Below are positions 12,984 to 30,661 of a DNA stretch of 41,797 bases, in pieces. The position numbers and the translations under genes were made by a program. Numbering within the stretch: position 1 is the stretch's first letter; every line of letters begins with the position of its first letter. This DNA comes from a virus. The notes below the pieces were generated by a model. That model made no database searches. It was not told the DNA's origin and saw only the letters and a program-made list of their open reading frames with translations. The DNA is taken from IMG/VR virus record IMGVR_UViG_3300029437_000019, positions 1 through 41,797 of that record; one strand, 5' to 3'.

Positions 12984-13076
12984 CCTTTATTTGCAACGGA
13001 TCGCGGGCTTTTGACTGTATAAAAACTTGGAATAAAGGTACTGTATAAAATACACAAATACCTCAAATCATGAACA

Positions 13077-13100: not shown

Positions 13101-13104
13101 GCCT

Positions 13105-13488: not shown

Positions 13489-13502
13489 TGTCCTTCCCCC
13501 TT

Positions 13503-13925: not shown

Positions 13926-13941
13926 TCTTGTTTCTCCTTTC

Positions 13942-13972
13942 AAAAAACTACGGCGGGACGATTGCCCCGCCG
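13942..13972 (-). terminator. Rho-independent terminator / attenuator between cargo genes
   Basis: On the - strand: CGGCGGG, 8-nt loop, CCCGCCG (13951-13972), then TAGTTTTTTG (revcomp of 13941-13950). Confidence 0.6.
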
Positions 13973-14006
13973 CGTTCGCTCAGTATCCGCAATGCGGCGG
14001 ATCATT

Positions 14007-14022
14007 TTCGTGAGTTCACGAA
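14007..14022. promoter_or_regulatory. Palindrome TTCGTGA-GT-TCACGAA (9-bp arms if extended to 14005-14024)
   Basis: Read directly, in the 99-nt gap between the 239-aa and 146-aa genes. Confidence 0.45.
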
Positions 14023-14042
14023 AAAGCTGAAATGTTTGGTTG

Positions 14043-14762: not shown

Positions 14763-14792
14763 TTCGCTTTTTCTCCTTTCTCAAATTTTTAT

Positions 14793-14817
14793 ATCAATTC
14801 GTGGCCACGAGATTGAT
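14793..14817. promoter_or_regulatory. 25-nt near-perfect palindrome ATCAATTCGTGG/CCACGA(G)ATTGAT
   Basis: Read directly, immediately upstream (on the - strand) of the RBS of the 239-aa gene. Confidence 0.4.
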
Positions 14818-14818
14818 C

Positions 14819-15034
14819 TCACAAAAAAGCCCGGAACTGCTGTGCCATTTCCTGGAGCTGATCAAGCTGCTGCTGATTGATTTTCCCGGACTGCACCAGC
14901 TTCATGACCTCCGCCTTCGGGTCACCCTGAAAATTCGCCTGGAACTGCCGGAAGTCCTGCACCATCCTCTGGAACTGTCCCATTTGCCCGCCCATGCGGT
15001 TCCCGCCGAGCTGCTGAAACAAGCTATTGCTCAT
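14819..15034 (-). CDS. Small Gln-rich protein (71 aa)
   Basis: GGAGGGAAA precedes the ATG at 15034. Sequence reads MSNSLFQQLGGNRMGGQMGQFQRMVQDFRQFQ... Confidence 0.6.
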   Translation of the reverse strand: MSNSLFQQLGGNRMGGQMGQFQRMVQDFRQFQANFQGDPKAEVMKLVQSGKINQQQLDQLQEMAQQFRAFL

Positions 15035-15362
15035 CCTGCTTTCCCTCCATCAGCGCCGATATTCTCTCCTCCAGCGCCTTCAATTCTTCCCGTGTCGCGT
15101 ATTCCTCCGTCTTTTTCTGCGGCTGCGCGGTCCTCTCCGTGTAGTCAAAGATTCTGAGCGGCATCGGCATCCCGCTCTGATCCGTCGATTTGATGTAGAA
15201 TGAATGCTTCTCGCTGTCCATCAGCAGCACGGAATTCCCCGCCGCCACCATGTACGCCTTTGCCGCCTCCTCGCCCTGCACCCACAGCAGCCCATTCTGG
15301 TGCTGCTGATACGGTCTTTGCTGCGGATAGTAGCTGTTGTTTGGATAGTAATAATCAGGCAT
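15024..15362 (-). CDS. Tyr/Gln-rich N-terminus plus small beta domain, possibly GerQ-like
   Basis: GGGAGGA lies 8 nt before the ATG at 15362. N-terminus is MPDYYYPNNSYYPQQRPYQQHQ. The segment ..AAGNSVLLMDS..RIFDYTE loosely resembles the GerQ C-terminal domain (recollection only). Confidence 0.6.
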   Translation of the reverse strand: MPDYYYPNNSYYPQQRPYQQHQNGLLWVQGEEAAKAYMVAAGNSVLLMDSEKHSFYIKSTDQSGMPMPLRIFDYTERTAQPQKKTEEYATREELKALEERISALMEGKQDEQ

Positions 15363-15747
15363 CGTTTATATCCTCCCTTGTCCAAAAATAGATTGGTGTC
15401 TCCCCGCTGGAATCCCAGCTGTCAAATAGCTGTCCGTCCTCCACGCATACCACATGGCCGGATAATGCCAGGATAAAAACGCCGGTTTGATGTTCTTTTG
15501 CAAAATCCGCCACCGTGTAGCACTCCTGGCAGTCGTCCTTCACAATCTCCCGTCGAAAGCCCTGCTTCTTCAGATACGCGCCCCACACCGCATTGCTCGA
15601 CGGCATATCCGCCTCCAGATTCCCCTCGATGCAAAGCCCCCAGTAAACGCTGTCCCAGTCCTTTCCGGTCGCCTTGGCGATGGCCCGCACCGTGCAGTCG
15701 CCTACCGCCTTTCCGCGCGGATTCGGCTGAAAAAACGAATATGCCAT
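15355..15747 (-). CDS. Putative papain-like cysteine peptidase (Cys-His-Asp)
   Basis: ATG at 15747 follows GAAGGAAGG. Candidate triad: GDCTVRAI (Cys), LSGHVVCV (His), FDSWDS (Asp). Confidence 0.5.
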   Translation of the reverse strand: MAYSFFQPNPRGKAVGDCTVRAIAKATGKDWDSVYWGLCIEGNLEADMPSSNAVWGAYLKKQGFRREIVKDDCQECYTVADFAKEHQTGVFILALSGHVVCVEDGQLFDSWDSSGETPIYFWTREDINDA

Positions 15748-15823
15748 ACCGAACACCTTCCTTCTGCGTCCAGTATGGCATATTCTTTTTTCGCTTGTGG
15801 GTCACTTAGGGGTCATTTGCGGC

Positions 15824-18800
15824 TCAGTTCCACGGCATCTGCCACCATCTCACATTTTCGTACTCCTGCCCCATGATCCAGTCCTTCTGTTCTGCCGTCA
15901 GGCTCAGGCTGTCGATCAATTCAATGACCTTTTCCTTCCTGCTGCCGGAGATGCTCTTTCCGTCCTCGTCCTTGTCCGCGTGCAGCTCCTTCGCTCTTGT
16001 CCAGAATTCGGCATAGACCTTCGCCGGAATTCCTTCCGTCTGCGCGGCCCTGAATTTCTCCGCCGTCGAGCCGGTATATACCGCTCCCAGCGCCGCATAG
16101 GCCTCCTTGTCCGATAGCCCGGACTGCATGACCGCCTGCGCCTTGAACGTCTGGTTCAGGTCATTCTCTCCCGCAAGGTCACGCGCTTTTTTCTCTATCT
16201 TCAGCGCGTTTCCCGCGCTCACGCCCGCTGCGGTCATTTCGTTGTAGAATTTCGCAGACTTCGGCACAAGTTTCTCGTCGATTGCCTCGCGCTGTTTCCC
16301 GGAATACTTCTTCCCGTCCAGCCAGTTTGCAAAGTCCGCCGCCCATTCTTTTTCGCTTCTCCCGGCGCCCAACTCTCCGCGCTTGTCGAGAATTTCGGAA
16401 ATGTCCTTCCACTTCATCCCGGCGTCCATCAGCTTGTCAATCTCGTCGTTTTTCCCGCTTTCGACCATCGCGCTGTAGATTCTCATTCTCTGCCCGTCGG
16501 TCAAATTCTCCTGCGCTGCCAGCTCGGCGCGTGCCTTTTTGCGGTGCTCCTCCTTCTGCTGCAAGCGCTTTGCCTTTTCCTCTTCGCTCTCGTCGTCCTT
16601 TGGCTCCGGGATGTCGGAGTAATTCATTGCATCGTCCATCCGCATCATCAGACCGTAGAGCGCATACCCGTTCACGCCCTCCTCCCGCAGCTCGTTCCAG
16701 AGCTGCGTCTGCTTTGCCGTCAGCCCGGAGTCGTCCCCGGCATAATACGCTTTTGCCTCCGGTGATGCGTTTACGCCGAACAGCGCCGTCCGGATGTAGG
16801 TCATCGGATCGTCCATATCCAGCGGATATTGCAGTCTCTTCTTTTCTCCGTAGCCCTTGGTTTTGCCGCCCTCGATCAGCGCCTTCACGCCGAAGCCGGT
16901 CTTGCTGAGCTGCCGCCCGCCCGGAACCAGCTGTGCAAGCAGCTTTGCCACAGCCTCCGCCGATGCGCCGGAGAAGAACCCGTCCGTTTTTATTGCATCC
17001 GCAATATTCTTCCCGCTTCCAAAGATGTCCGGCATCGGCATCGTCCTGTCGCCCACGCCAAACAGGCCGGACAGATTCGATGCAAACGGAATTTCATTCA
17101 TCAGGTTGTACCCCGTGTCCGCAAGCGCCGCCGACGTGTCAAACGTTTCCCGTTCCTCCGGCACGTCAAAGATTTCCGATCCGACTACTTTGTTGATCAG
17201 GCTCTTCATGTAGTCGTTTGTTGAGAGGCCCTTTCCGGAGGCAAAGAAGTTTGCCGTCAGTCCTGCAATGTCCAGCGGTGCGGGCGTGCCGCCGTAAAGC
17301 TCATCCGTCAGCCGGTTCAGCACGAACGCCGCAATCAGGTACCCGAAGATCGTCCGCAGCAGCATCCGCGCCGCACTCTTTTTCCCGTTCTTTTCCGCCT
17401 CTCTCTGAATCTCCAGCGGCATATCCTTCATTACGAACTCCACGGTGTTCAGCGGCTCGATCTGGAAGAGGTTCGCCATTCTTTTCCACATTCCCTTGCT
17501 GTGGAACGCCAGCGGCTTCGCCCCCTTTGTCCGGTCTCCCATCAAGGCTCTGCCGTACCAGTCCGCAAACCGCATGGCTTCCTCGTGGTTTTTCCCATTC
17601 CGGATTGCATCCCAGTATGCCGCGCGCGTTGCAATCGTCGAGAGCATCGAATCCATGAATTCCGCCGGTGCAAACATACCGGAAATGAACTTGTCCGTCC
17701 CGCTCTGCACCAGATAGTCAATCCCCATCTTTCCGGTCAGGAAGTCGATCTCCTTTCGGAATTCTCCCAGCTTTCCCGTGCAGAACTCCTGCGTCGCTTT
17801 CAGGATCGCCCGCTGGCTTCTCGTCGCCTGAAGCATCGCAAGTTGGGCGCTCTGGTTCAGAACGGAGGAGAGGTTTCCGGCCACATTGGCCTTTGCAAAG
17901 GCTCCCACCAGCTTGTTGCCGATGTTCAGCCATTCGCGCCCGCCCATGTATTCCGTGCCTCGGTCGCCGCCGAACTGTTTTCCGGCCAGAATATCCCCGT
18001 AGTTTTTCAGCCATACCACAAGGTCGGAATATCTCGTGTTGTTCTGCGCTTCTCCGAGCATTTCCTCAATCAGCTTGTCAAACGCCTCTGCAAGCTCCGC
18101 GTTGGAGTATTCTCGCATATCGTTTCCGATGCGCCCCATCTCCTGCAGGTATTCCACTTTTTCTTCCACGTTCCCGCTTCTGGACATATCCAGCGCCTTT
18201 TCCAGCGTCGCGGTAAAGCTCCCCCGCAGACCTTTTCTCAGATAGCTTTCCGCCGCGCGTATTTTCTGGATGTCGTCCGTGTGGAAAAGGATATCGCCGA
18301 GATACTGCACGTAGTTCTGGAACGCTTCTTCAATGTCATACGCCGTCTTGTCGCCCTTTCTTTCGAGGAAGAACGGATTCCACCGCTTCTGTGGCCGGAA
18401 CGTTTCCGTTCTGCCCGCAATCTCCGCCGGAAGTCTTGTCACCGTTTCGTCCTTGATCCCCAGCGCCTTCCACAGATCGTCCAGTTCCTTTTGTACGGAG
18501 TTAAACCTTTCCGCAATCGGAATGTGCGGCGTATAGCCCTTAATTTTTCCGATCGGCTGCATCCCGTGCGCAACAAGGAAGTCGTTGATCGCCTCAAAGT
18601 ACAGATCAAATTTTTCCCTGTATTCCTTCATTGCATTCTCGCACTTTACCTTGTCTATCCCCTCCGCGTCCTTGCCGTTGATCCATTGCGCGTACTTTTC
18701 CACGATCTTTGCTTCCTCGCTGTTCAGCGCGAATTCAATCGCCTCGTTTTCCACGCTTTCGCCCCGCGCAACGTTTTCCGCCGCGCTGATCAGGTCTTTG

Positions 18801-21800
18801 CTTCTGTCGCTCTCCTGCGCCTGCTGCACATACCCTTCCACATCCAGCATCATATGCACATAGGCGCTCTCCGTCTGGTTGAGTTCCGACTTTTCCCCCT
18901 TGCTGTCCGTGAATTTCCGCACGTCGTCAAACTGTCCGTTCATCCACCGGTAGCTTTCCGCCGTGTTCCTTACCACCGGCGCAAAGAGGTAGTTGTAGAT
19001 TTCCATCCCGCGCTCCTCGCCAAAGATATTTACCATTGACCGCAGCGCTGTCCGGTAGTTCAGCACCAGCAGCTTCTCCGGCTTAAAGAGCGACGGGTCA
19101 GCCTGAATCTCCTTCTCCGTCGGGAACAGGTCAATCATCTTGTAAAGCAGTCCGTCCCGGATCTCTCCCTTCCGGATCTGGATCAGATCCTCTCCTGTCA
19201 TGCGCTCGTTCAGGTACAGCGCCGCCAGCTGAGATACGACCTCCGGCCGGCACTTGTCCGGCAGCCTGTAGTATTCCGATCGCCCCGATGCGATTTTCTT
19301 CGCCTCCCGAAGCTCCTGCTTTGTCGCATCCCATTTTTTGGCCGTTTTTTCTATCTGCCGCTGGATCGACCGCCGGGTTTCCGCTCCCTTTCGCATTGCG
19401 TCCACCTGGCTGTATTCCGCAATGCCTCCGTCGATCTTTACGCCTGCTTTTTCCAGCGCCGGGGATCCCTTAAAGCTCTCCTTCGGTGTCCCCTCCGGAT
19501 GGATCCCCGCCGCAGTCAGGTCTGCAAAGGTCTTCTTCGATGCCTGCAATTTTTCCAGCGCGGCTTTCGGGCTGATGGAGCTTTTCGGTGCATCTTCCTT
19601 TGTAATGGTCGCCTTCCATGTCCCGTTTGCCCGGTTCGTCAGCTCCCACTTTTTCCCGGTCATTGCCTGCAGGAGTGCCAGCGCCTCTCCCGGCTGCAAG
19701 CTCGTCCCTCTGGAATACATCGGCTTCCCCTTCCCGTATGGGAAGTCCGGTTCACTGGTTCCAAAGCTCTCCAAATAGGCCTTTTGCACGCCCTCCAGCC
19801 GTTCCTGCTTTTTCTTCTCGTATTCCTCCGCCGTCCGCACGATGCTTCCCTTGCGTTCTTCCTCGGCTGCCGCTCTGGTCTCTGCCTTCTGCCTTGCGTC
19901 CGCCTCCGCCGTCTGCGCGTCGTACCAGTTGTAGAATTCCGCAAGATCCTCCGCGTCCGCCGCGTCCTCCAGCTTCTCCTGCGGCATACTCGCAAGCAGC
20001 GCCGCCGTCTCCTGCACGCTCGGCTGATATACCGGGTCAACCGCCGTCAGCAGCTTCGTCTCCATGTCCTTCACGCTTGCAAGCCCGGTCTCCTTGTTCG
20101 TGAACAGCACCGTGAGCATGCCCTTCTTCGTGCTCTTGTCCAGCACAAGGCCGTAGTTGCCCATGTCCGCCGCCTTGACCCACGTCCGCAGGGGGTAGAC
20201 CTGCCGTCCGTTCAGGAAGGGGAAGCCGCGCTTCTGCGCCGCCGCCTCCGAGATCGTCCACGGCTCCGTGATTCCCTCCGGCTTTTTCGCCGGTCTTTCT
20301 CCGTCCGCCTCGCGGATGAGCGATTCCAGCCGCTCGTCCGTTTCCGTTCTTGCCTGCGCTTCTCTTGCTTCCGCGCCTGCCTGCTTTTCATAGCGGTTCA
20401 GCAGCTTTTCAAATTCCTGTCTCTGGTATTCCAGCTGCTCCTCCCGCTTCAGCCCGAAGCGCTTTTCGTTTTCCTCCATGCCCTTTCGCAGGCTCATCCG
20501 CGCATCCTTGCCCTTTTCCGCCGCGTCCACTATCTGCCGCAGCATCTCCGAGGCGATGTATTCCTCCGTGAATTCCGAGGGGTACGCATCCGCCAGCTCC
20601 AGCATATGCACGTCCACGCTCCGGTCGCTCGCCTTGTCCGTGAAGTAGATTCCACTGCTGAATGCCTTCTTTCGGAAGTCTTCCCAGTCGTCGCCGAAGT
20701 CCTCCCGGATTCCCTCCGGCACAAAGATTCTTCTTCCCCTCAGAGCCTCGCGGATCTCTCTGTAGTAGTCGTCCGCCGGGAGCGTTGCCGTGCCGAGGTT
20801 CATCAGCGCTTCAAAAAGGTCGTCCTTTTCCGCCTTCAGCAGCTTCACGCCCTGCTGCATTTCCGCCATCGGCGCCTCTAAGAGCTTCCCCAGCGCCTCG
20901 TTGTCGTAGCTCTGCACCTCAAACAGCTTTTTCAGCCCGCCGGTCAGCTCCCTTTTGTAGCTCTCCTTCGCGGCCTGCTTCGCTTCTTCGGCCTTTACTA
21001 TCGCCGTTTCCGCGCGTTCCTGCGCCCGCTGCGCCTTTTCTGTTGGAGTGAGGGAAAATTTTTGGGGTGTGCTGGATGCTGCCTGAGGCAAGTCTCTGTT
21101 TAACTGATAGCCGCCGCGAAGCGCTTGTTCCAATTGAGCATCGCTCCATCCGTACTTTTCTTTGAAAAGCTCCTTCCCTTTCTGGTATTGCTCCATCCAG
21201 TCTTCAATGACACGCACAAACTTAACCGTATGTACGTCCAGAACAGGTTCCCCGTCTGATCCTATGGAAATTGCTTCGCCTGTCACTTCTACGAGATCCC
21301 CCGGATATTTTGGGTATTCCCATACCGAGTACCCGTCTTCCTTTTCTCCGGTCGCATGGTTTACAGATCGTCTTATCTTTCCGCCTTTTATATAATCAAT
21401 TTCCTTTTCCGACTTTATTATTCTGTAAAAATACCCATCCTTCCTTAACCCCACCATTGAATAAATTTCACTCTCAACCGCACCTTTAATTTTCTCACTC
21501 GTGTTATTGTTTGCTGAGCTTCTGTTTAACGCCATTCTCCCCCCTGAGAGGATATAATTCGGAGTTTCGTCCGACGCGAATTTTGCTCGGTTCGGCAATC
21601 CCGTCACGACGAGAGTATTTTCATCACCGTTTTTTGGCACCTCAATTGAGCCGAGGTTATAGTATTTGCCCTCCTCCCACGTTCCGTCCGGGTTTCTTTC
21701 CCAATATTCCTGTGATATCAGCTCCACCGTGTCCCCTGGCACGGCTTTATATACCTGTCCTTCCCCGCGTCCGTAGACACGGATTCCTTCGTCCGCTTTT

Positions 21801-24800
21801 TCTTCGTCTGTAAGCAACCGTTTACTTTCCGTCTGCTGTCCTAACGAGAACTTCACCCTCTGAGCATAGTACCCCTCCGGATTTCTCTCTTCTCCGAGCA
21901 CCTTCAGATCGTCCTCGTTCAGATTCCGAATGGTCGTGAGATTTTCATTTTCCCTCTTGACATTCTCAGCGCTTTGTGATACATTGTCGTATGGAATCCG
22001 AGTCTTGTTTACCTCTGTGTGCGATCCTTCTTGATCGTCCCTGAGAGAAAGGCCGGATTCCTCTTTTTTTGCCTCCAGCAGAATTTTGTGCATCCAGAAT
22101 TTATTTTTTTCTCTGCTTCCTCTCACTATAATCTCGACTTCATATTCTTTATTGTCAATTTTTGCCATACTAGTGAGATACACATATTTCAGATCACTGC
22201 TTGGATTGTGGTAATTTGCCACATTGTTCATTCGCACCGTCGCGCTCTTTATCAATTCCGGGATCTGTTGTATTGTTGCTATCTTCAGTTTTTTCAGTTT
22301 ACTTGGCAGCGTCTCAAACCGGCTTCCCTTGCCCAACGTCTCGCGGATTCCGTCCTTTGTGATGGCCACTGTCATGCCGGATTCCTGATTCACAACAACA
22401 TTGTTTCCGTCCGCGAAGAATCCGTCCTCAGTCAGCTTTTTCAATACCGCTTTCTGCACACCGATGTAGTCATTGATTGATTTTATCCCGTAGTCCTTCA
22501 TCACGTCCGCCACAGAATACTGCACACTGCTCTCCGTCAGCAGCGCCCGATCCCATCCGAGGTCGGGCATTTTGTTTTTCCGTTCCTCTGCTGTCAGCTT
22601 CCGGCGGCCGGCAGTCTCTCTGGCCTCGATCTCTCCTGCAGAATTGATGTACTGCCCCAGATAGACCTCGCCGGGGTTTTCCATCTGCCGTTTCAGATCG
22701 AGCAGCTTCCCGAACCACTCCTTCGGATAGAGCTTTTCATAGAGTCTGTCGTGCTCCGCGTCCATCCGGTCGTATTTCTCCGCGTCTCCTGGCTTTTCGG
22801 AGTAGAACAGGCGCTCCAGCTCCCCGTCGATCTCCTGATAGCGGATGTAGTCGTTCTGTTCTTCCTTTGTCAGGCCGTTCAGAATGTCGCTGTACTCCCG
22901 CTGCAAGCGCTCCTGCAACCTGTCTCCGCTTTCATAGTCGCGCCGCGCCCAGTATTCCGGGCTTGTTCCGCCCTGGAATCCCTCGTATTTCTGGATGATG
23001 TGCTGAATCTCGTGCAGCAGCGTCTCCGGCCCCTTGCCGAACAGGCTGTCGGAGAGAATAATCGAGCCGTTTCTTTTGTCAAATTTTCCCTTCACGCCGG
23101 GATCCAGCTTTTCAAAGCGCAGCGTCGTGTGCCGCAGCAGAGGATACGCCTCATAGAGTTCGTCGTGCTTCAGGAAATCCTGAAGCTCGTATTTTTTCTC
23201 CCATACCCTGTCGCTGTATTCCTCCTGAAGCGCTTCCATTTCCGCTTCCTCCGCCTCTGTCAGCGGTTCTCCGCCCTTTTCAAAGCTGTCGCCCCATTTG
23301 TCTGTCAGTTCTTCCAGTCTGCGGTATCTCGGCTCGCCCAGCAGCCTTGCGTCCCCGTTCGGTCGGAATTCCGCCTTGCTGTCGTCCACCTCAAACCGCC
23401 ACTGGCCGTCTGCGCCGCGAATCCATCCGGTTTTCCGCCAGATTTCCTCCCGGCTTGCGCCGTCCTCCTCCATGGCCTCCGCAAGTGCAAGGCTCTTGGA
23501 GCTTGCTGTCTTGGCCTTCGGGCCTGCCATACTCGCCCTCGTGCCGCCCCTCCGGGCGGCTTTTTCGTTCCCGTCGCTGTCCTGCGTCCGGCGCACAGCG
23601 GAAGAAACCTCCGCCGCCGGTTCCCGGCTCTCCGTCTCCGACAGGAATTTCCTTGTTGCCTCTCGGATTCTCCGGAAGCTCTTTTCTCCGAAGCGGTTCA
23701 TGCCCGCCGCTGCGTCCGCCAGGATTTCCTCATAGATCGCCTCCAGATCGTCCCCATATACCCCGCGGTACGCCTGTAGATACTTGTCGACGATCTTCTC
23801 CGCTTCCTCGTTCGTCACGTCCTGCATCGCCGCCTCCACCGCGTCGATCAGATTAACGTTCCCGTTCCTCACGCTGTCGTGGAACAGCTCGTGCTCCACC
23901 AGAACCTCCGGCTCGTATTCCGCGCTGCTCACGCTCACGATGATTCGCCCGTCGTCCGGGTTGTACACCGCATCCACGTTCCGGTATTCTCCGTCCCTGT
24001 CCTTCACGGACATTGTGCCCACTACAAATGTCGTTTTCAGGCCTCTTTCCTTTGCCCTTCGCTGCGCCTGCTGCATTTCTCCGGTGTACCTCCGCACCGG
24101 CACCACGCCGACCAGCACATCCGGGTCGCCGTCTGCGGTCAGCTTGTCCATTGCCGTGTCCTGCGCAATGCCCTTGAAGCGCTCTACTCTTTCGTCGAGC
24201 CTCGTCTTGCGAGATACTCCTCCTTCCACGCCTTCAGCTTCGCCCGCTCCTCCTCCGTCACCGGCGCTTCGTGATCCGCCTTCTGCCACGCCGCCAGTCT
24301 GTCCTTCGGAATCCACACGCTCATTCCGCCCTTGGTTTTCACCAGCACTCTCTGGTTGCTCATTGCTCATTCCTCCTTCGGTTTCCTGCGCCGCCGGCGC
24401 ATTGATTTCCTCTGCCTGTTCGACCGTCTCTGCCGCGCTCTGGGTGGTCTCCTGCGCCATCTGTGGCTCTTCCTGCACAGTTTGTTCCGCTTCCGGTGTG
24501 TTTTCCTGTCCGGCGCGTTCCGCCGCTCTCTGCGTCCGTTCTTCCGCTCTGGCAGCCTTTTCCTGTTCCAGAATGTCAAGCCGCTGCTGTGCATCTCGCG
24601 CCGCATAGATGTCCTGCGCCGCCTCGCTGCCTCTCAGGCTGTCGATCATTTCCCGCTCCGAAAGAATCCGGATGTCCAGCGCCCGGTCCGTCAGCAGCGC
24701 CGCCTCGCTCGTCTGGTTCGCAAGGATGGCGTTCTGGAAATCCGCGTCCACAAAGTCGTTGTCAAAGAAGCCCTCCGGCGCTTCGTATCGCCGGAAGCTG

Positions 24801-27556
24801 TCCGACAGGCTCTGCGTACCCTCCAGCCGGTCTGCAAGCGTGTTGAATTCCCTTACGACCGTTTCCCAGTCGCTCCTTGCGCGCTTGATCTCCTTCTCGC
24901 TCCACCCGTTCATGCGCATCAGGTTCTCGTCGCCCGCGAGGTATTCCAGCTCGTATCTCGTCATTGCGCGGTAGAGGCTTTCGAGGTTCGTCTGTGCGTT
25001 CGCATCAAACCTCGTAATCACGTGGGATTTTACATAGCTCTTCGCCCGCGCCGTCAGGTCGATAATGTCCTCCGGTGCGCTCATCACCATGGAAAGCAGT
25101 ACGCCCACGGTAAACTCGTCCACCAGCTCCTTTGCCGTCAGGTCGGTTTCGCCCGTCAGCGCGTAGTCCAGCGCCGCGCCCGCAACGGCCGATGCCACTT
25201 CCTCCAGACCCTCGCCGATGCGGTCGAACACCTTGCTCGATACGATCTTCCGGATGGTCTCATTGTCTGTCATGTCGGTGATATATTTGGAGATCAGCCC
25301 CGCATTCTCCGGGTCTACCACCGGGTTGCCGCCGAACAGGCCGTTCGTCCCGTATTCGATCAGGCCGCCCGCAAGCAGCTTCACCGCCCGCCCGGCGGCG
25401 CTCATTCCGCTGTCCTCCGCTTCGCCGTAGCTGTTCAGCGCCGCGTTTGCGGAAATGATCAGGTTGGAGCTGTTTTTCATCAGGCCTGCCATCTGCGAGG
25501 CAAACTTCATGTAGCCCGTCGCGCCCTTCTGCGCGTTTGCAAGGCTCGACGCATACTTTCCGCCCTGCGAAAGCTGCGCAAGCGCCGTGTTCCCCGCGCT
25601 GATCTGCCCGGCAATCGCGCCCGCTGCGGCCATCTCCAGTGCCGCCTGCGTCAGGTCCTTCGTCATGCCGGCTGTAAATTTCTCAAACTTGCTTCCGTTT
25701 TGCAGCAGGTCGGAGGCATACCGCCCCTGCTCGTATTCTCTCTGTTTTCCTTCCTGCCAGTCCCTGTTTTCGTAGTCGATTCCCTGCTGGCCGCCCTCAA
25801 CAAAGTAGTTTCCCACCGGGTTCTCGCCGAACATATTCAGCACCTTGCCGGTCGCCTTTGTGATATAGCCCAGCCCGCGTGTGAGCACCTGCTCCATGCC
25901 GCCGGGATATTTCAGCATGATGTTGTCCGCTGCGTTCTGGCTGCCGGTTTCAAACATATCAAGGTAGGTCTGCCCGTCGATCTCCTTGTATCTGTCCAGC
26001 GCGGCCTGCTGGCCCTCCGGGTTGGCCTTCAGTCCGTTTGCCTCTCGTTCCTTCCGGAGCTTCGCCTCGTTCGGTGTTCCCTTGATCTGCTGCATAAACC
26101 GGTCGTACTGCTCCTGCGTCATTTCCGTGTTTGCCAGGTATTCCGGCAGCACCTCCTGCCCCATAAAGGTGATCGCGGCTCTCTCCGCTGCGGAGTTGCC
26201 CCAGTTCCCCTCTCCGTAGGTAAAGTGCATCCGGTCAAGCAGCTCGTCCACGGTTTTATATCGGATGTTCTCCCGCGTCAGGTTTGACTTCTGGTAGCGG
26301 AATTCCTTCATCGCGTCTCCCTTGTCCGGGATCGCTTCCGCCGCCCTCCGGATCGCACCCTGTGCGTCCCCTGTCCATTTGTTCGGGTAGTTTTTATAGG
26401 CGTGGTTTGCTTCCTCCAGATATTCCCTTTTCCATCCGTCAACCTTTTCCAGCAGCTGAGCATACTCCTCTTCCGTGCATTTTCCGCTTGCGAGGAGGTA
26501 GTTCAGCCGCGCCGCGATCTCCTGGAAGATTCCCGCATGAATATTCTCCGCAGCGCCCTGAGAGGTTCCGTCCTGTGTGAACTTTTTCAGTGCATCGAAA
26601 TCCTTGCGGATATATTCCTCGTGCTGCTGCACGGTCTGGTTCTGCCAGTCGGCCTTTTGCGCCTTTCGTCCCATCAGGCCGGAAAGCTCCGCGTTCTGCG
26701 CCTCCTCCTGTGCCTGTCCCAGCCGGTATGGGCTTCCCGCGGTGATCTTTTCTCCCGTGCTGTCTGTATATCTCGGCAGGCTCGGATTGATCGCAGCGCC
26801 CATTGGCTTTCCCGTCAGTGGGTTCATTGTCTGTGCGCCCGTTCCGGTTTCCTGCATCTGTGCAAGCTGCGTCTTGTACCGCTGCACCTGCTGCAAGAGG
26901 TCCTGTGCCTCCGCCGTGTTCTTCTTTTTCAGGTAGCTTTCCACCTCGTCGGCATCTTTCAGCAGCTTTTTCGCGCCGCTTGCCCACTGCATCGCCTTGT
27001 TGGCTACTGCCGTTCCCGCCTCCGTTTCGGATGCCTTGGTGAAGTAGTCGTTCGCCTCCGTCCGGAACCGCGCAAGGCCGCTGCCGAGTGCAAGGCTGTC
27101 CTCGTCCGTTTCCTTCCCTTCCAGAGCGCCCTGGTATCTCTTGAGCTGCGTTTCCCATTCGTTCAGCCTGTTCTGGTATTTCTGCGCGTCCTCGCCCATC
27201 ACGCCCGCATAGCGGTTGAAGTAGTCGCGTTCCTTCTCCACACTTTGCAGCATCGCGCCCACGCGCTCTTTCCACCCGCTGCCGCTTGCGCCGATGCGGT
27301 GCTTGCTCTGGAAATATCCGTCCATGCCGCCGAACAGCGTCCCGATGTCCGTCTGCATCCGGTCAAAGCCTGAAGCGCTCAGGCACTTTTCACGTTCCGC
27401 TGTCTGTACCGTATTCAGCTGATTCTGCCCTTTCTGCTGCATATATTCGTCAAAGGTCGCCGGATAGGAAAAACCACCGGAGGCCGCAGGAGTATTCCCC
27501 GCGGCCTGCCGGTTTTTCTGTGCAATGTATTCGTCAAAGGTCTTCGGATAATTCAT
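15824..27556 (-). CDS. Giant 3,910-aa multidomain protein; candidate virion-delivered polyvalent/ejection protein
   Basis: Uninterrupted ORF. GAGGAGG lies 7 nt before the ATG at 27556. It follows portal and the 344-aa gene. Contains two HExxH modules, Gly/Ala-rich hydrophobic stretches, an acidic linker and a long helical C-terminal third. Confidence 0.9.
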   Translation of the reverse strand: MNYPKTFDEYIAQKNRQAAGNTPAASGGFSYPATFDEYMQQKGQNQLNTVQTAEREKCLSASGFDRMQTDIGTLFGGMDGYFQSKHRIGASGSGWKERVGAMLQSVEKERDYFNRYAGVMGEDAQKYQNRLNEWETQLKRYQGALEGKETDEDSLALGSGLARFRTEANDYFTKASETEAGTAVANKAMQWASGAKKLLKDADEVESYLKKKNTAEAQDLLQQVQRYKTQLAQMQETGTGAQTMNPLTGKPMGAAINPSLPRYTDSTGEKITAGSPYRLGQAQEEAQNAELSGLMGRKAQKADWQNQTVQQHEEYIRKDFDALKKFTQDGTSQGAAENIHAGIFQEIAARLNYLLASGKCTEEEYAQLLEKVDGWKREYLEEANHAYKNYPNKWTGDAQGAIRRAAEAIPDKGDAMKEFRYQKSNLTRENIRYKTVDELLDRMHFTYGEGNWGNSAAERAAITFMGQEVLPEYLANTEMTQEQYDRFMQQIKGTPNEAKLRKEREANGLKANPEGQQAALDRYKEIDGQTYLDMFETGSQNAADNIMLKYPGGMEQVLTRGLGYITKATGKVLNMFGENPVGNYFVEGGQQGIDYENRDWQEGKQREYEQGRYASDLLQNGSKFEKFTAGMTKDLTQAALEMAAAGAIAGQISAGNTALAQLSQGGKYASSLANAQKGATGYMKFASQMAGLMKNSSNLIISANAALNSYGEAEDSGMSAAGRAVKLLAGGLIEYGTNGLFGGNPVVDPENAGLISKYITDMTDNETIRKIVSSKVFDRIGEGLEEVASAVAGAALDYALTGETDLTAKELVDEFTVGVLLSMVMSAPEDIIDLTARAKSYVKSHVITRFDANAQTNLESLYRAMTRYELEYLAGDENLMRMNGWSEKEIKRARSDWETVVREFNTLADRLEGTQSLSDSFRRYEAPEGFFDNDFVDADFQNAILANQTSEAALLTDRALDIRILSEREMIDSLRGSEAAQDIYAARDAQQRLDILEQEKAARAEERTQRAAERAGQENTPEAEQTVQEEPQMAQETTQSAAETVEQAEEINAPAAQETEGGMSNEQPESAGENQGRNERVDSEGQTGGVAEGGSRSAGDGGGAGEAEGVEGGVSRKTRLDERVERFKGIAQDTAMDKLTADGDPDVLVGVVPVRRYTGEMQQAQRRAKERGLKTTFVVGTMSVKDRDGEYRNVDAVYNPDDGRIIVSVSSAEYEPEVLVEHELFHDSVRNGNVNLIDAVEAAMQDVTNEEAEKIVDKYLQAYRGVYGDDLEAIYEEILADAAAGMNRFGEKSFRRIREATRKFLSETESREPAAEVSSAVRRTQDSDGNEKAARRGGTRASMAGPKAKTASSKSLALAEAMEEDGASREEIWRKTGWIRGADGQWRFEVDDSKAEFRPNGDARLLGEPRYRRLEELTDKWGDSFEKGGEPLTEAEEAEMEALQEEYSDRVWEKKYELQDFLKHDELYEAYPLLRHTTLRFEKLDPGVKGKFDKRNGSIILSDSLFGKGPETLLHEIQHIIQKYEGFQGGTSPEYWARRDYESGDRLQERLQREYSDILNGLTKEEQNDYIRYQEIDGELERLFYSEKPGDAEKYDRMDAEHDRLYEKLYPKEWFGKLLDLKRQMENPGEVYLGQYINSAGEIEARETAGRRKLTAEERKNKMPDLGWDRALLTESSVQYSVADVMKDYGIKSINDYIGVQKAVLKKLTEDGFFADGNNVVVNQESGMTVAITKDGIRETLGKGSRFETLPSKLKKLKIATIQQIPELIKSATVRMNNVANYHNPSSDLKYVYLTSMAKIDNKEYEVEIIVRGSREKNKFWMHKILLEAKKEESGLSLRDDQEGSHTEVNKTRIPYDNVSQSAENVKRENENLTTIRNLNEDDLKVLGEERNPEGYYAQRVKFSLGQQTESKRLLTDEEKADEGIRVYGRGEGQVYKAVPGDTVELISQEYWERNPDGTWEEGKYYNLGSIEVPKNGDENTLVVTGLPNRAKFASDETPNYILSGGRMALNRSSANNNTSEKIKGAVESEIYSMVGLRKDGYFYRIIKSEKEIDYIKGGKIRRSVNHATGEKEDGYSVWEYPKYPGDLVEVTGEAISIGSDGEPVLDVHTVKFVRVIEDWMEQYQKGKELFKEKYGWSDAQLEQALRGGYQLNRDLPQAASSTPQKFSLTPTEKAQRAQERAETAIVKAEEAKQAAKESYKRELTGGLKKLFEVQSYDNEALGKLLEAPMAEMQQGVKLLKAEKDDLFEALMNLGTATLPADDYYREIREALRGRRIFVPEGIREDFGDDWEDFRKKAFSSGIYFTDKASDRSVDVHMLELADAYPSEFTEEYIASEMLRQIVDAAEKGKDARMSLRKGMEENEKRFGLKREEQLEYQRQEFEKLLNRYEKQAGAEAREAQARTETDERLESLIREADGERPAKKPEGITEPWTISEAAAQKRGFPFLNGRQVYPLRTWVKAADMGNYGLVLDKSTKKGMLTVLFTNKETGLASVKDMETKLLTAVDPVYQPSVQETAALLASMPQEKLEDAADAEDLAEFYNWYDAQTAEADARQKAETRAAAEEERKGSIVRTAEEYEKKKQERLEGVQKAYLESFGTSEPDFPYGKGKPMYSRGTSLQPGEALALLQAMTGKKWELTNRANGTWKATITKEDAPKSSISPKAALEKLQASKKTFADLTAAGIHPEGTPKESFKGSPALEKAGVKIDGGIAEYSQVDAMRKGAETRRSIQRQIEKTAKKWDATKQELREAKKIASGRSEYYRLPDKCRPEVVSQLAALYLNERMTGEDLIQIRKGEIRDGLLYKMIDLFPTEKEIQADPSLFKPEKLLVLNYRTALRSMVNIFGEERGMEIYNYLFAPVVRNTAESYRWMNGQFDDVRKFTDSKGEKSELNQTESAYVHMMLDVEGYVQQAQESDRSKDLISAAENVARGESVENEAIEFALNSEEAKIVEKYAQWINGKDAEGIDKVKCENAMKEYREKFDLYFEAINDFLVAHGMQPIGKIKGYTPHIPIAERFNSVQKELDDLWKALGIKDETVTRLPAEIAGRTETFRPQKRWNPFFLERKGDKTAYDIEEAFQNYVQYLGDILFHTDDIQKIRAAESYLRKGLRGSFTATLEKALDMSRSGNVEEKVEYLQEMGRIGNDMREYSNAELAEAFDKLIEEMLGEAQNNTRYSDLVVWLKNYGDILAGKQFGGDRGTEYMGGREWLNIGNKLVGAFAKANVAGNLSSVLNQSAQLAMLQATRSQRAILKATQEFCTGKLGEFRKEIDFLTGKMGIDYLVQSGTDKFISGMFAPAEFMDSMLSTIATRAAYWDAIRNGKNHEEAMRFADWYGRALMGDRTKGAKPLAFHSKGMWKRMANLFQIEPLNTVEFVMKDMPLEIQREAEKNGKKSAARMLLRTIFGYLIAAFVLNRLTDELYGGTPAPLDIAGLTANFFASGKGLSTNDYMKSLINKVVGSEIFDVPEERETFDTSAALADTGYNLMNEIPFASNLSGLFGVGDRTMPMPDIFGSGKNIADAIKTDGFFSGASAEAVAKLLAQLVPGGRQLSKTGFGVKALIEGGKTKGYGEKKRLQYPLDMDDPMTYIRTALFGVNASPEAKAYYAGDDSGLTAKQTQLWNELREEGVNGYALYGLMMRMDDAMNYSDIPEPKDDESEEEKAKRLQQKEEHRKKARAELAAQENLTDGQRMRIYSAMVESGKNDEIDKLMDAGMKWKDISEILDKRGELGAGRSEKEWAADFANWLDGKKYSGKQREAIDEKLVPKSAKFYNEMTAAGVSAGNALKIEKKARDLAGENDLNQTFKAQAVMQSGLSDKEAYAALGAVYTGSTAEKFRAAQTEGIPAKVYAEFWTRAKELHADKDEDGKSISGSRKEKVIELIDSLSLTAEQKDWIMGQEYENVRWWQMPWN
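17309..17365 (-). other. Hydrophobic, possibly membrane-inserting segment (MLLRTIFGYLIAAFVLNRL, aa 3398-3416)
   Basis: Translated directly from the sequence. It is borderline for a TM helix. Confidence 0.35.
23000..23014 (-). other. HExxH motif 2 (HEIQH, aa 1515-1519 of the giant protein)
   Basis: Revcomp of gtgctgaatctcgtg. Context is GWIRGADGQWRFE...ETLLHEIQHIIQKYEGFQGG...AGEIEARETAGR. Confidence 0.8.
23876..23893 (-). other. HExxH motif 1 (HELFHD, aa 1222-1227 of the giant protein)
   Basis: Revcomp of gtcgtggaacagctcgtg. Context is ..YEPEVLVEHELFHDSVRNG.. Confidence 0.8.
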
Positions 27557-27568
27557 CTTTCTGCCTCC

Positions 27569-28603
27569 TCAGTTCAGCTTTACGGTCGGCCGCTTGTTCG
27601 GGCCTCCATTTTTTCTCCCGGAGTACCCTCCGTCATAGCTGCTCCCGCTCTTTCCTCCCGACAGGTTCGCATAGCTCAGCAGCCAGTTGTAAAGCTCGTT
27701 GTAGTCATAGCCCGCTGCGGCGTAGTACGCAATGTCGCTCTCTATCGCGTCAATCGTCCCCGCCTTGTTCAGCTTTGCCAGCAGCTCCTGCCGCTCCTTG
27801 TAGCCTACCGTCTTTGTTTTCGCGCTTCTGCTGCCTCCTCCGCCGCCGGAGCTCCTCGTGTAGGACGCGCTCTGCGCTGCCGACAGGATCTTCTGCGCGT
27901 CGTCTGCCGAGATTCCCGCCGCCGTCAGCAACTCGCCCGAGGGCATCTGCCCGTTTTGCAGCAGTGTCAGCGCGAGGGAATAGGAGTCGCTCTTTGCCTG
28001 CTGCTGCTTCTGCCATTCAAACTGTTCCTTCTGCCATGCAAGCTGATCCTCCTGCATTTTCCGGTTCCAGTTTTGATACGTCTGGTCTGCCGTCGGTGCG
28101 CCCACCTGCACGCCGAGGATCGCCGCCACCTTGTCGTCTGCCGTCCCCAGCTCCTTCCAGCGGTTCATGGCCGCTTCGATCTGCTGCTGGTACAGGCTCG
28201 GCATCAGCTCGGCCAGCTTGCTCTTCTGGTAGTCCGCCGCCTGCGAGGCAGCCGCCACCGCCTGCGTCGAGGGGATCCCTCCCGTCATGGTCGCGTACTG
28301 TCCCAGCGTGTCGCGTCCGGTTCTGTCTGCCTCTCTCAGGTAGGCTTTTTTATATGCCGAGATCACGTCGTCCCCCAGCAGGTAGTCCACCGTCGATTTC
28401 TGCGTTCCCATCACCTTGTCCAGCTCCGCCGCGTAGGGGCTTACTCCCTGCGCCGCAGGCTGCGCGCCCGTCACACTGTTCAGCTCCGCCACATACGGAT
28501 TGAGCGGCATGATCTGCGCCGCAGGCGGTCCCTGCCATTGCCGCACCCTTTCCAGTTCTGCCGCGTCCTGCAACTGCTTTTCGTAGTCATTCCTGCTTGC
28601 CAT
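27569..28603 (-). CDS. Portal-proximal virion protein, unknown function (344 aa)
   Basis: AGGAGG lies 7 nt before the ATG at 28603, which is 4 nt after the portal stop. Gln-rich coiled-coil and Gly/Ser-rich tail. Confidence 0.7.
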   Translation of the reverse strand: MASRNDYEKQLQDAAELERVRQWQGPPAAQIMPLNPYVAELNSVTGAQPAAQGVSPYAAELDKVMGTQKSTVDYLLGDDVISAYKKAYLREADRTGRDTLGQYATMTGGIPSTQAVAAASQAADYQKSKLAELMPSLYQQQIEAAMNRWKELGTADDKVAAILGVQVGAPTADQTYQNWNRKMQEDQLAWQKEQFEWQKQQQAKSDSYSLALTLLQNGQMPSGELLTAAGISADDAQKILSAAQSASYTRSSGGGGGSRSAKTKTVGYKERQELLAKLNKAGTIDAIESDIAYYAAAGYDYNELYNWLLSYANLSGGKSGSSYDGGYSGRKNGGPNKRPTVKLN

Positions 28604-28606: not shown

Positions 28607-30661
28607 TTAACCTCCTATCTGCTGCGGCATTGCCGCCTGCATCTTCATCATCAGCATCTGCTGCTGAAGCTGCTCCTCTCTGCGCTGCTCCATCAAGGAC
28701 TTGATCTTCCCCGCACCCGGGAAATGATCCTCCTCCATCTTTGTCCAGTAGAGGATCAGCGTGTCAACGCTTCTCGGGTCTCCGAAAGCGCCGGACTGCA
28801 GGTGCGCCGTGGTCTCCTGCCACATCGCCTCGCGGTTCGTGGCAAGGCCGGACGCATCGTCGCAGGAGAACAGGAATTGGTCGTTCCAGTAAAGCTCCCC
28901 GGCGTCGTCCATTCTCAAAAATGCGTAGGAATTCCATTCCTCGTATTCCTGATTCCCCTGATCGTCCCGGTATCTGAGCGGCCGCTTCTCTTCGCAGTAT
29001 GCCAGTTGGTTTTTGAACATCCGCTCAAAGATTCGCGCATACGCCGCTTTCTTCAGCACGCGCTTACTCTCCAAGCGTCCCGCCGACTGTGCCGCCGCAA
29101 ATTCCTTTGCCTTGCCGGACTGCGCCGTCGGGTCTGTCCGTCCCTGATAGCTGTCCGTCATGCCGATCAAGCGTCTGGATTCCTCGTAGGCCTGCGTCAG
29201 CATCGCCATGTTCGGGGTGATGTCCGCCTGAAAGTCTCTCACCGCGATCAGGCTTGCATCCGCCGCATTGCCCACATACCAGATGCCGTTATCCTGCGGG
29301 TCAACTCTCAGGTGCGTCGAATCCGGCAGTGTGATCTTGCTGCCCGCCTTCATCAGCCGGTCTATGGTTTTCTGCTCCAAGCGGTTGATGGTGTTCTGCT
29401 GGTCTGCGATCTTGTCGCAGTCCGATTCACCTAAGAATTTTCCGTGCGCCGTCACGTTCCTGCGCAGCACCGCTGGGAAAATGTCCGGCTTGTAGTACGG
29501 GATTTCAATTTCTTCTTCGTATCTTTCCGCTTCCGGCGCCGGCGCTTCCTCCGCCGGCGCGATCTCCTGCATGGGAACCTCCTGCGCGCCGAGGCTCCCC
29601 ATCGGTGCCTGCATTGCGTCCATAGCAGCCGGTTCCGTTATCTGTTCTTCCGGCCGGTAGAAGATTTTCCCGAATCCGTGCTCTGCTCTCAGCCGCTGCG
29701 TGATTGCCGGGTTTACGCCAAGCTCGTCCAGCTCGTCCAGCCTCACCCTGCGCGATGTCTCCACCACGTCCTCCCAGCTGTTTGCCCCGCAGAAGGAGCA
29801 CACGCCCTTTCTCGGCTTTCTTTTTTCCGCGTCCTCCGGGTAGCTCCCGTCCTGCGTCGGCTCGCTCAGGTCTATGTACGCGCTGTCCACCTCCGTCTGC
29901 CCGCACTTTTTGCAGCGCCGCAGGATGCGCGCCTGGCAGTCTGGCAGGTTCTCCACCTCCAGGTTCCCCACCCACGCAAAGCGGCCCACACCGCCGTCCT
30001 CGTTCCGGTACTCCGCGATCTTCAGCGTTACCACATCCTCCGCGGTGCTCTCCTCCTCGCTTCTGACCTCCGGCATCTCCTCCTGCATATCGCCCACGTC
30101 CACGCCGTAGCGTCTGCGCACATAGCCCTTCGTTACCGGAATCAGCCAGAAGTAATATTCCATCTCGTCAATTTCCTGCACGCCGTTCTGCGGCACAAAC
30201 TGCATCGGGTGGACGCATTTCAGCGTGTTCTCGCCCACGGTCGTGTGCGTCCGCTTGCTCGTGTCCCACTCCGGCAGATACAGGCAGCCGCCCTGCTTGT
30301 AGGTGATGCGCTCGGATTCGTCGTTCAGCTCCTCCGTCGGCAGCCGGTCCAGCTCGTTTCGCAGCATGTTTTCTATCATCCGCGCCAGATGCTCGTCCTC
30401 GCGGCGCATCGGCGTGACCTTCGGCATCGGGATGGAGCTGTCGATCTCCGATTCGATGTTTTCTGCCGTGATGTTCCAGACGTGGCTTGTCTCCTTCTGG
30501 TATCCGTACTTCCTGTCGTTCTCCGTCAGCGGGGTCAGCTTGCGCTCCCCTCTGTACTGCGCCTCTCTGCGCTGCATCTTTTCCTGCTCTGCGGCGTAGG
30601 CGGAAAGATTCTTTTCCAGCCGCTCCTGCCACAGGCTCACGGTTTCCTTTTTCTGTTTCAT
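28607..30661 (-). CDS. Portal protein with an inserted Zn-ribbon
   Basis: 684 aa, immediately after terL. GAGGAGGG RBS. CKKCGQ...CSFCG insertion at aa 250-291. Confidence 0.7.
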   Translation of the reverse strand: MKQKKETVSLWQERLEKNLSAYAAEQEKMQRREAQYRGERKLTPLTENDRKYGYQKETSHVWNITAENIESEIDSSIPMPKVTPMRREDEHLARMIENMLRNELDRLPTEELNDESERITYKQGGCLYLPEWDTSKRTHTTVGENTLKCVHPMQFVPQNGVQEIDEMEYYFWLIPVTKGYVRRRYGVDVGDMQEEMPEVRSEEESTAEDVVTLKIAEYRNEDGGVGRFAWVGNLEVENLPDCQARILRRCKKCGQTEVDSAYIDLSEPTQDGSYPEDAEKRKPRKGVCSFCGANSWEDVVETSRRVRLDELDELGVNPAITQRLRAEHGFGKIFYRPEEQITEPAAMDAMQAPMGSLGAQEVPMQEIAPAEEAPAPEAERYEEEIEIPYYKPDIFPAVLRRNVTAHGKFLGESDCDKIADQQNTINRLEQKTIDRLMKAGSKITLPDSTHLRVDPQDNGIWYVGNAADASLIAVRDFQADITPNMAMLTQAYEESRRLIGMTDSYQGRTDPTAQSGKAKEFAAAQSAGRLESKRVLKKAAYARIFERMFKNQLAYCEEKRPLRYRDDQGNQEYEEWNSYAFLRMDDAGELYWNDQFLFSCDDASGLATNREAMWQETTAHLQSGAFGDPRSVDTLILYWTKMEEDHFPGAGKIKSLMEQRREEQLQQQMLMMKMQAAMPQQIGG

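Follow-up and report, generated by a model that had tools for sequence, protein, structure and literature searches.

A predicted polyvalent giant protein with a conserved carrier and an exchangeable cargo cassette in a gut Clostridia phage

Introduction

What does a phage protein of 3,910 residues do? The question is raised by IMG/VR virus record IMGVR_UViG_3300029437_000019, whose 41,797 nucleotides (positions 1 to 41,797, here called the window) contain one uninterrupted open reading frame (ORF) of 3,910 codons at positions 15824-27556. By its domain content, the encoded protein (the giant protein) belongs to the phage-type polyvalent proteins, a known class. Most of the chain is a conserved carrier, and within it lies a cargo cassette that has been exchanged among close relatives. 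The best explanation, to which we give a probability of roughly 0.6, is that this is a carrier-plus-cargo polyvalent protein that is packed in the phage head, ejected, and processed by its own zincin modules, with the cargo acting in the host. In an infected cell, polyvalent proteins are believed to act before any other phage molecule.

Identity and layout of the giant protein

Two domains of the giant protein were found by Pfam at scores above the Pfam cut-off, namely LPD23 (aa 1342-1397, E 3.7e-22) and LPD3 (aa 1718-1818, E 4.3e-10), where aa denotes amino acid positions. These matches identify it as a predicted polyvalent protein of the phage type, as Iyer et al. 2017 (PMC5512222) use the term. 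Several unrelated domains of the LPD and effector kinds share the one chain (LPD23, LPD3 and two zincins), and the phage is of the portal-terminase type with the gene near its virion genes, those for TerL, the portal, a 344-aa protein (g344) and the giant protein adjoining one another. In 65 homologues of the central part, LPD23 is combined with ART-PolyVal, MuF_C, PBECR3, ddrB-ParB, LPD38, SprT, nucleotidyltransferase and other domains, and the homologues of regions searched piecewise add SNF2/methylase and GNAT domains. The unit of LPD23 and zincin 2 is a widespread hub, and the repertoire joined to it is the one that defines polyvalent proteins (PMC5512222). The giant protein's own cargo comprises the LPD23-zincin unit, LPD3 and a beta-rich domain, none of which has a known activity.

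Other searches returned little. The giant protein has zero matches in PHROGs, NCBIfam and PADLOC, and in the PDB no sequence or profile match was found for the whole protein, for its C-terminal region B or for zincin module 1 (MPT1). Among GenBank phages, megablast and tblastn gave almost nothing, that is, one or two unannotated faecal contigs. The Phage_Mu_F domain was matched in neither the giant protein nor g344, and some relatives carry MuF_C only.

The ORF lies on the minus strand, starts with ATG and is preceded by a ribosome-binding site (GAGGAGG, window 27564-27570, 7 nt 5' of the start) that overlaps the stop codon of the upstream gene. An ORF of 3,910 codons cannot have arisen by chance. 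It is not an assembly artefact either, since 68 complete homologous ORFs of 1,532-3,957 aa are found in independent IMG/VR contigs; the longest family representatives reach 5,671 aa. Positions 1-99 and 41699-41797 form an exact direct repeat of 99 bp at the two ends of the window, which is therefore a circular assembly, a complete phage genome of 41,698 bp, of which the giant ORF occupies 28.1%.

Module borders were obtained by mapping onto the giant protein the homologues from three piecewise searches, for which the protein was split in three. The features, in order along the chain, are as follows.

15824-27556, minus: giant ORF, 3,910 aa
24152-27556, minus: N-module, aa 1-1135, with a G/A-rich segment and an acidic linker inside
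27527-27550, minus: N-terminal motif copy 1, YPKTFDEY, aa 3-10
27443-27466, minus: N-terminal motif copy 2, YPATFDEY, aa 31-38
23534-24151, minus: zincin module 1 (MPT1), aa 1136-1341, from alignment A4 and the structure model
23879-23893, minus: HELFH of MPT1, aa 1222-1226
aa 1277, minus: conserved Glu of MPT1, in EEILADA
23534-23545, minus: variant junction RASM, aa 1338-1341, in the linker of low confidence that joins MPT1 to LPD23
22523-23533, minus: LPD23 and zincin module 2 (MPT2), aa 1342-1678
23000-23014, minus: HEIQH of MPT2, aa 1515-1519
aa 1640-1646, minus: AGEIEAR of MPT2
21062-22531, minus: swappable cargo cassette, aa 1676-2165, from DNA breakpoints against the related loci L010, L001 and L004, GC content and Pfam
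22511-22522, minus: junction QYSV, aa 1679-1682, 3 residues off the left cassette breakpoint
21842-21853, minus: junction KFSL, aa 1902-1905, at the border of the LPD3 module and a module of unknown kind
21050-21061, minus: junction KFSL, aa 2166-2169, exactly on the right cassette breakpoint
19487-21061, minus: C-terminal region A, aa 2166-2690, kept in close relatives and partly in distant ones
16628-19486, minus: region B, aa 2691-3643, predicted all-helical, family-defining
17294-17380, minus: hydrophobic helix of region B, aa 3393-3421, conserved
15827-16627, minus: C-terminal tail, aa 3644-3910, charged and helical, retained by 66 of 150 representatives

An earlier note, made from the letters of the window alone, had described a single 3,910-codon ORF filling 28% of the genome, with a good ribosome-binding site and a place between a portal-proximal gene and small downstream genes. 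This is borne out, with the minus strand now added, by the GAGGAGG 7 nt before the ATG and by a setting one 344-aa gene away from the portal, with three small genes downstream. The note's landmarks within the chain are likewise present. The duplicated YP(K/A)TFDEY is seen at aa 3 and 31, and the Gly/Ala-rich hydrophobic stretch proposed at about aa 640-830 has 28% G+A, moderately hydrophobic windows at aa 635-660 and aa 806-837, and a GEGLEEV motif within aa ~635-837. The acidic low-complexity linker contains 22% D+E over aa 1020-1135, and the HExxH modules at aa 1222 and 1515 both exist, their zincin signatures being invariant. What had been called an AT-rich inserted module at about aa 1690-2170 proves to be a swapped cassette, sharply bounded at aa 1676-2165 with a GC of 0.463. 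The long C-terminal region is almost wholly helical by prediction, and the hydrophobic segment that had been placed in it at aa 3398-3416, here bounded at aa 3393-3421, is the only strongly hydrophobic one in the giant protein. The note's likening of several stretches to polyvalent-protein modules agrees with LPD23 and LPD3 in Pfam and with the effector domains of homologues; compared across related phages, the domain content includes ART-PolyVal, PBECR, ddrB-ParB, SNF2/methylase and MuF_C.

Approximately 75% of the protein (N-module, region A, region B and tail) forms the conserved carrier, which has no coverage in Pfam or PHROGs.

Exchange of the cargo cassette

The AT-rich segment is a horizontally acquired, exchanged cassette. 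Its GC content (window 21062-22531, aa 1676-2165) is 0.463, against 0.582 in the remaining gene. The DNA of L010 follows the window at 97.0% identity from the upstream gene as far as aa 1675.7, and again at 97.6% identity starting with aa 2166.0; between these breakpoints it carries an unrelated segment of 636 nt against the window's 1,470 nt. In L001, where the flanks are 81-87% identical, the alignment breaks at both positions (window 22532 and 21061). L004 (97%) has the right-hand breakpoint only, at window 21055 versus 21061.

Two modules lie in the cassette, LPD3 and a beta-rich one (aa 1903-2165) that is nearly without relatives. The C-terminal half of the latter (giant aa ~2022-2148) is 45% identical to a small ORF at 20001-20423 of the faecal phage MT835513.1 (L006), which stands alone between a MuF-like head gene and a scaffold-like gene. 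This setting is a further hint that the beta-rich module travels in capsids. Searched against plasmids with tblastn, the cassette gave no match.

L001 is a bacterial chromosomal contig of 215,979 bp, on which a 2,762-aa copy of the giant gene without the N-module lies at 9601-20642. Homologues of the three small downstream genes are kept beside it and housekeeping genes flank them; no portal, terminase or capsid genes were found on L001. The copy is either what remains of a prophage or a piece of the system that has been kept.

A junction motif at module borders

Just three copies of the pattern [KRQH][FY]S[LVIMA] are present in the whole protein of 3,910 residues (aa 1679, 1902 and 2166), and each of them stands at an independently mapped module boundary. 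A variant, RASM, is found at aa 1338, before LPD23. In the structure model, the motifs at aa 1338 and 1679 are at the ends of linkers with a low predicted local distance difference test score (pLDDT). The extended logo is G-P-x-x-[RK]-[FY]-S-[VALI]-[DE]-[DE]-[DE].

The same tendency is seen across the family. In 72 members with both MPT1 and region B, and with expectations obtained by shuffling within each region, the motif [KR][FY]S[LVIM] is enriched ~8-fold in the cargo (100 observed vs 12.8 +/- 3.6 expected) and depleted in region B (4 vs 15.8), with 16 vs 12.2 in the N-module and 4 vs 4.5 in the tail, counts that apply to a motif defined after it had been seen and to related sequences that are not fully independent. 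We regard the junction motifs as candidate protease sites, which may be at once the cut sites of the resident zincins and the joints of cassette recombination. Alternatively, they could mark recombination joints, or a strand shared by domain starts, and not protease sites. The motif received no mention that a text search of Iyer et al. (PMC5512222) could find, a search in which the layout and the tandem N-terminal motif were not included.

Zincin modules

In MPT1, the H, E and H of HExxH and the E, A and D in EExLADAYAGMNRF, 51-55 residues downstream, are invariant among 22 diverse sequences. In MPT2, ten positions are invariant across 36 homologues (H1515, E1516, Q1518, H1519, Q1522, E1525, G1641, E1642, E1644 and R1646), and a non-conserved insert separates the HExxH part from the AGEIEAR part. 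Both modules thus carry the zincin signature, that is, HExxH with a conserved downstream Glu.

An AlphaFold model of aa 1136-1696 (mean pLDDT 84.7) places in each module a small beta-sheet, then the HExxH helix, then a Glu-bearing helix. Compared with the PDB by Foldseek, the model gave a list dominated by ~25 anthrax lethal factor entries, PprI/IrrE, an ImmA/IrrE-like regulator and jannalysin, all weak zincin matches (best E 0.15, none at E<=1e-3). Anthrax lethal factor is a match given by Iyer et al. too (PMC5512222). The model therefore supports, and does not prove, a zincin fold for both modules.

The linker that follows zincin 1 (aa 1311-1341, window 23534-23626; …AEVSSAVRRTQDSDGNEKAARRGGTRA) is near-identical among relatives whose zincin 1 is only ~50% identical. 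It is either under strong constraint or a substrate of recombination.

The conserved carrier and its family

A search with region B returned 1,993 clusters (50% identity) at E<=1e-3 and 874 at E<=1e-30, and the family is abundant in human-gut viromes. Almost all of these proteins are 1,500-5,671 aa long, with region B near the C-terminus. Region B is uncovered by Pfam, PHROGs and NCBIfam; apart from its LPD cargo, the family, very large as judged from these clusters, is absent from Pfam and PHROGs. Its members share a fixed order, which runs from an N-terminal helical module through zincin 1 and a variable cargo to the ~950-aa helical region B, with its one hydrophobic helix, and the tail. MPT1 was detected in 72 of the best 150 representatives and is N-terminal to region B in every case; the cargo gap between the two spans 111-2,310 aa, and the tail comes after region B. 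A G/A-rich 'EGxEEV' segment is kept in the N-module of the family consensus. One apparent departure, a split of the gene into 932 aa and 1,625 aa in L008, is a scaffold N-run and not real.

The model of region B is nearly all helix, with a pLDDT of 63.7 overall, which is only moderate, and of 80-90 over the first ~310 residues. Foldseek against the PDB returned only generic helical repeats for it (E>0.6). In BFVD, region B matches the C-terminal pieces of giant phage proteins whose names reflect their LPD, ART, methylase or helicase cargo; most of them belong to 'Podoviridae sp.' or uncultured Caudovirales. In 14 sampled giants, the cargo includes ART-PolyVal (5), ddrB-ParB (3), PBECR5/3, SNF2 with helicase and Eco57I methylase, MuF_C, LPD23 and LPD3.

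The make-up of carrier and cargo bears on whether the giant protein could be purely an ejection or envelope-penetration machine, in which the whole chain, zincins included, forms or clears a conduit for the DNA across the thick wall of a Gram-positive cell and the cargo is structural or acts on the cell wall. A conserved helical carrier that accounts for ~75% of the chain and bears a hydrophobic helix would suit such a machine. So would the rest of the genome, where no virion-associated wall hydrolase was recognised and a CHAP endolysin is the only lysin found, and the authors of the phi24B study propose a role of this kind for the gp47 metallopeptidase (10.64898/2026.04.10.717836). However, the cargo of relatives is typical intracellular weaponry (ADP-ribosyltransferases, RNases, SNF2/methylase, ParB-like), and free swapping of the cassette among near-identical phages fits an arms-race payload better than a structural part. 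Pfam also found no lysozyme, M23, NlpC or amidase domain in the giant protein. A purely mechanical role is thus plausible for the carrier and fits the exchangeable, effector-like cargo poorly, and for the protein as a whole we consider it rather unlikely.

N-terminal duplication and the partner gene

The duplication at the N-terminus is a trait of the family: the 9-mer at residues ~2-10 is found, in 25 of 74 N-complete representatives, to recur 20-45 residues further on (p<=0.01 vs shuffles), and its sequence varies widely among family members. In the giant protein, KTFDEYIAQ (aa 5-13, window 27518-27544) resembles KTYQEFIAE of T4, with five of nine residues identical and the other four similar. 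Its BLOSUM62 score against the T4 sequence is 31, the next best window in the giant protein scores 20, and a score of 31 is reached by one of 391,686 windows in the family. The T4 sequence in question is part of MKTYQEFIAE, the capsid targeting sequence of T4 internal proteins (PMC8442874). As in T4, the motif is at the extreme N-terminus of a presumed capsid-internal protein; unlike in T4, it is duplicated, and no T4-type prohead protease or scaffold core was identified. Since T4-like sequences are not enriched at N-termini across the family (13 of 381 hits vs 2.3% expected, not significant), the likeness is a lead only.

Immediately upstream of the giant gene, a g344 homologue (29-100% identity) is found in 61 of 80 related IMG/VR loci. 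The gene before the pair encodes either the portal or, in more distant relatives, a phrog_511/beta-propeller protein, and the distant members P0013, P0014 and P0038 are also among fibre, virion and lysis genes. The pair therefore belongs stably to the structural module. The g344 protein has a tandem N-terminal motif of its own, PY(V/A)AEL (NPYVAELNSV / SPYAAELDKV), and a Gly/Ser-rich C-terminus; family searches gave it no match. It is a likely functional partner of the giant protein, whether as chaperone, packaging adaptor or second internal protein.

This synteny also helps to judge the proposal that the giant protein is a polyprotein that is never packaged, being made late or by the prophage and at work in the cell that makes it (superinfection exclusion and host manipulation are examples), with the zincins processing it in the cytoplasm. 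The proposal draws on L001, where a truncated copy and the downstream genes have been kept in a bacterial chromosome without portal or terminase, and on the lack of direct virion evidence for the giant protein. Against it stand the position of the gene in a structural operon, where its ribosome-binding site overlaps the upstream stop codon, the pairing with g344 beside a portal or phrog_511 gene in the 61 of 80 loci, and the physical presence in virions of two comparable giants, phi24B gp47 and N4 gp50. On balance, we hold a protein confined to the producing cell to be improbable.

A proposed route from capsid to host cell

Under the preferred carrier-plus-cargo reading, the giant protein probably resides in the phage head and is injected along with the DNA, by analogy with other giants of podoviruses. 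A few copies would be packed in the capsid during assembly, possibly by way of the tandem N-terminal motif. On infection, the chain would be ejected through the short tail, either unfolded or as beads on a string, and its helical N- and C-terminal modules, together with the hydrophobic helix, may help it to bridge or insert into the Gram-positive envelope. The zincins would cut the linkers and free the cargo modules in the cell, where their early targets would be host defence or physiology. The protein's identity and layout, the exchange of cassettes, the motif statistics and the synteny are direct results of the comparisons above; from structural synteny, analogy (phi24B gp47, N4 gp50, T7/P22) and the domains of relatives, we infer packaging, ejection, cleavage and an anti-defence role.

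Several known systems come close. Among them are the polyvalent proteins of Iyer et al. 2017 (PMC5512222), with which the giant protein shares LPD23 and LPD3, several zincins among unrelated domains and a place beside portal and terminase, and its relatives share ART-PolyVal, PBECR, ddrB-ParB, SNF2 with methylase, and MuF_C. Zincin-driven processing of polyvalent proteins was proposed there too (PMC5512222). In contrast to that type, ~75% of the giant protein is a conserved carrier outside Pfam and PHROGs.

The gp47 protein of phi24B, a temperate Stx podovirus, has 2,811 aa with LPD5, LPD1, LPD38 and MuF-C; it was found in virions by mass spectrometry, is invisible in cryo-electron microscopy maps and has been proposed as a capsid-internal ejection protein (bioRxiv 10.64898/2026.04.10.717836). 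It is likewise a giant LPD-bearing protein of a temperate podovirus. The phi24B host is Gram-negative, the LPD set is different and the gene is at the end of the late region instead of beside the portal. Neither BLASTP nor hhalign detected homology between the two proteins.

N4 gp50 (~3,500 aa) is capsid-internal and ejected, with loosely connected domains arranged as beads on a string; it has an N-terminal helical injection region, a central payload and a C-terminal region with a zincin that is needed for encapsidation (PMC13434306; PMC5512222). The giant protein is similar in its size, helical N-terminal region, central payload and zincin. Unlike gp50, it has no RNA-polymerase domain, its payload consists of exchangeable cassettes, and there is no sequence similarity.

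For Clostridia, the ~41-kb temperate phages phi1 and phi4 of C. clostridioforme LM41 lack a tape measure and sheath and form podovirus-like particles by electron microscopy (PMC11318856). Each has one 8-kb ORF, ~20% of the genome, which is similar to an LPD3 protein of 'Podoviridae sp.' and was read as polyvalent (PMC11318856). Their ORF is shorter, lies at the 3' end of the prophage and has no published domain dissection, and it is likened to the giant protein by description only. The kind is thus already known, similar giant ORFs in Clostridia podophages having been noted in print. What the present analysis adds to Iyer et al. and the LM41 papers is the conserved carrier (region B and the partner gene), the junction motif with its enrichment and depletion, the recurrent breakpoints and the family-wide tandem motif.

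Several points weigh against packaging, injection and processing of the giant protein. Direct evidence is lacking for its presence in the virion, its ejection and its cleavage. Its own cargo is without known activity, and the term 'anti-defence' is therefore extrapolated from relatives. The truncated copy in L001, without packaging genes, indicates that this part of the protein can persist outside a virion context. To these are added the after-the-fact definition of the junction motif and its other possible meanings, the weak fold matches of the zincins and the moderate model of region B. Neither region B nor the N-module matched anything in the PDB by sequence or fold, the solved ejection proteins of T7, P22 and N4 included. 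For T7 gp14/15/16 and P22 gp7/16/20 in particular, no PDB match was obtained by sequence, profile or region B fold, the presence of those structures in the library not having been checked, and the fold test of region B is weak because the confidence of its model is moderate.

A broader proposal, which we offer tentatively and think less than even in its chances, is that the family of ~2,000 clusters is an undescribed, standardised protein-injection carrier of Clostridia podophages. Such a carrier would combine a tandem N-terminal capsid-targeting signal that recalls the T4 sequence, a resident zincin, protease-site linkers that double as cassette joints, and a membrane-engaging C-terminal ejection module that works with the 344-aa partner. 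If this is true, recombination at the cleavage sites themselves would make the identity of the cargo programmable. If the carrier reading holds, the family would offer a natural template for carrying proteins of choice into Gram-positive bacteria of the gut. A name for the carrier would improve the annotation of thousands of gut phage genomes. The fixed layout, the two zincins with their defined catalytic residues, three or four candidate cleavage sites at natural points of cassette exchange, the conserved tandem N-terminal motif and the conserved partner gene provide testable handles on processing and delivery.

Genome context

The phage is temperate and is a gut Clostridia phage; a copy of region B with 90% identity is present in a gut 'uncultured Clostridiales' metagenome-assembled genome. 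Almost all genes are on the minus strand, with an integrase/repressor module on the plus strand. In the direction of transcription, the late genes encode TerS, a tail fibre, a holin, the CHAP endolysin, two unknown proteins and the capsid protein, followed by a 619-aa protein, TerL, the portal, g344, the giant protein and three small unknown proteins. Beyond these are the integrase/repressor module and then replication and methylase genes. The window was found to contain no tRNA genes. The principal neighbours are as follows.

41002-41601, minus: TerS
38934-41057, minus: collagen-repeat tail fibre
34296-35306, minus: HK97-type capsid protein
32196-34055, minus: 619-aa protein, with beta-propeller and phrog_511 parts
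28607-30661, minus: portal protein (phrog_156, E 2e-33)
27569-28603, minus: 344-aa partner gene (g344), between the portal gene and the giant ORF

For the 619-aa protein, the N-terminal part was matched to designed beta-propellers ('Cake', Kelch-like) and the C-terminal part to phrog_511 ('internal virion protein'), and we regard it as a candidate for a nozzle or tail hub.

These neighbours also bear on the case of a tape measure, or another protein of tail length or tail tip, in a long-tailed phage. The giant protein has the great length, helical character and, in places, G/A-richness of such proteins, and a few BFVD entries named 'minor tail protein' were matched, only at E about 0.08. No tape-measure family in Pfam or PHROGs was matched, and the giant gene is flanked by those for the portal and g344 rather than by tube and chaperone genes. 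Families of tail tube, sheath, chaperone and tape-measure proteins are all missing from the ~40 ORFs scanned. Moreover, relatives are deposited as Podoviridae, and the LM41 phages phi1 and phi4, with podovirus-like particles, have no tape measure (PMC11318856). A tape-measure role, which the earlier note had already thought unlikely for want of tube, sheath and chaperone genes, is effectively refuted.

The earlier note had also seen no motifs of an N4-like RNA polymerase, and a virion RNA polymerase of the N4 type was rejected here, no RNA-polymerase family in Pfam being matched at E<=1. In the PDB, the giant protein had no sequence match at E<=1, a search for which the presence of N4 mini-vRNAP entries among the chains was not checked. 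Three motifs of region B (DRGxExxxGR, NLSSxLNQ and YHTDD) were considered as those of a T7-like polymerase and discarded, their order and spacing being a misfit and profile and fold support being absent.

Some minor features of the genome are worth recording. The gap of ~9 kb between TerS and TerL, filled by tail fibre, holin, endolysin and capsid genes, is an unusual order (window 28607-41601, minus), and TerL, portal, g344 and the giant gene are the last of the late genes. GC skew is negative in all 1-kb windows, the plus-strand lysogeny module included. An island of low GC (0.48) at window 9000-11000 carries a 306-aa ORF (9908-10828, plus), which encodes an Ada zinc-binding domain and runs against the direction of most genes. 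A copy of this ORF with 98% identity lies at the start of the L004 scaffold, just upstream of an N-terminally truncated giant gene, an arrangement that represents either a rearrangement or a mis-join.

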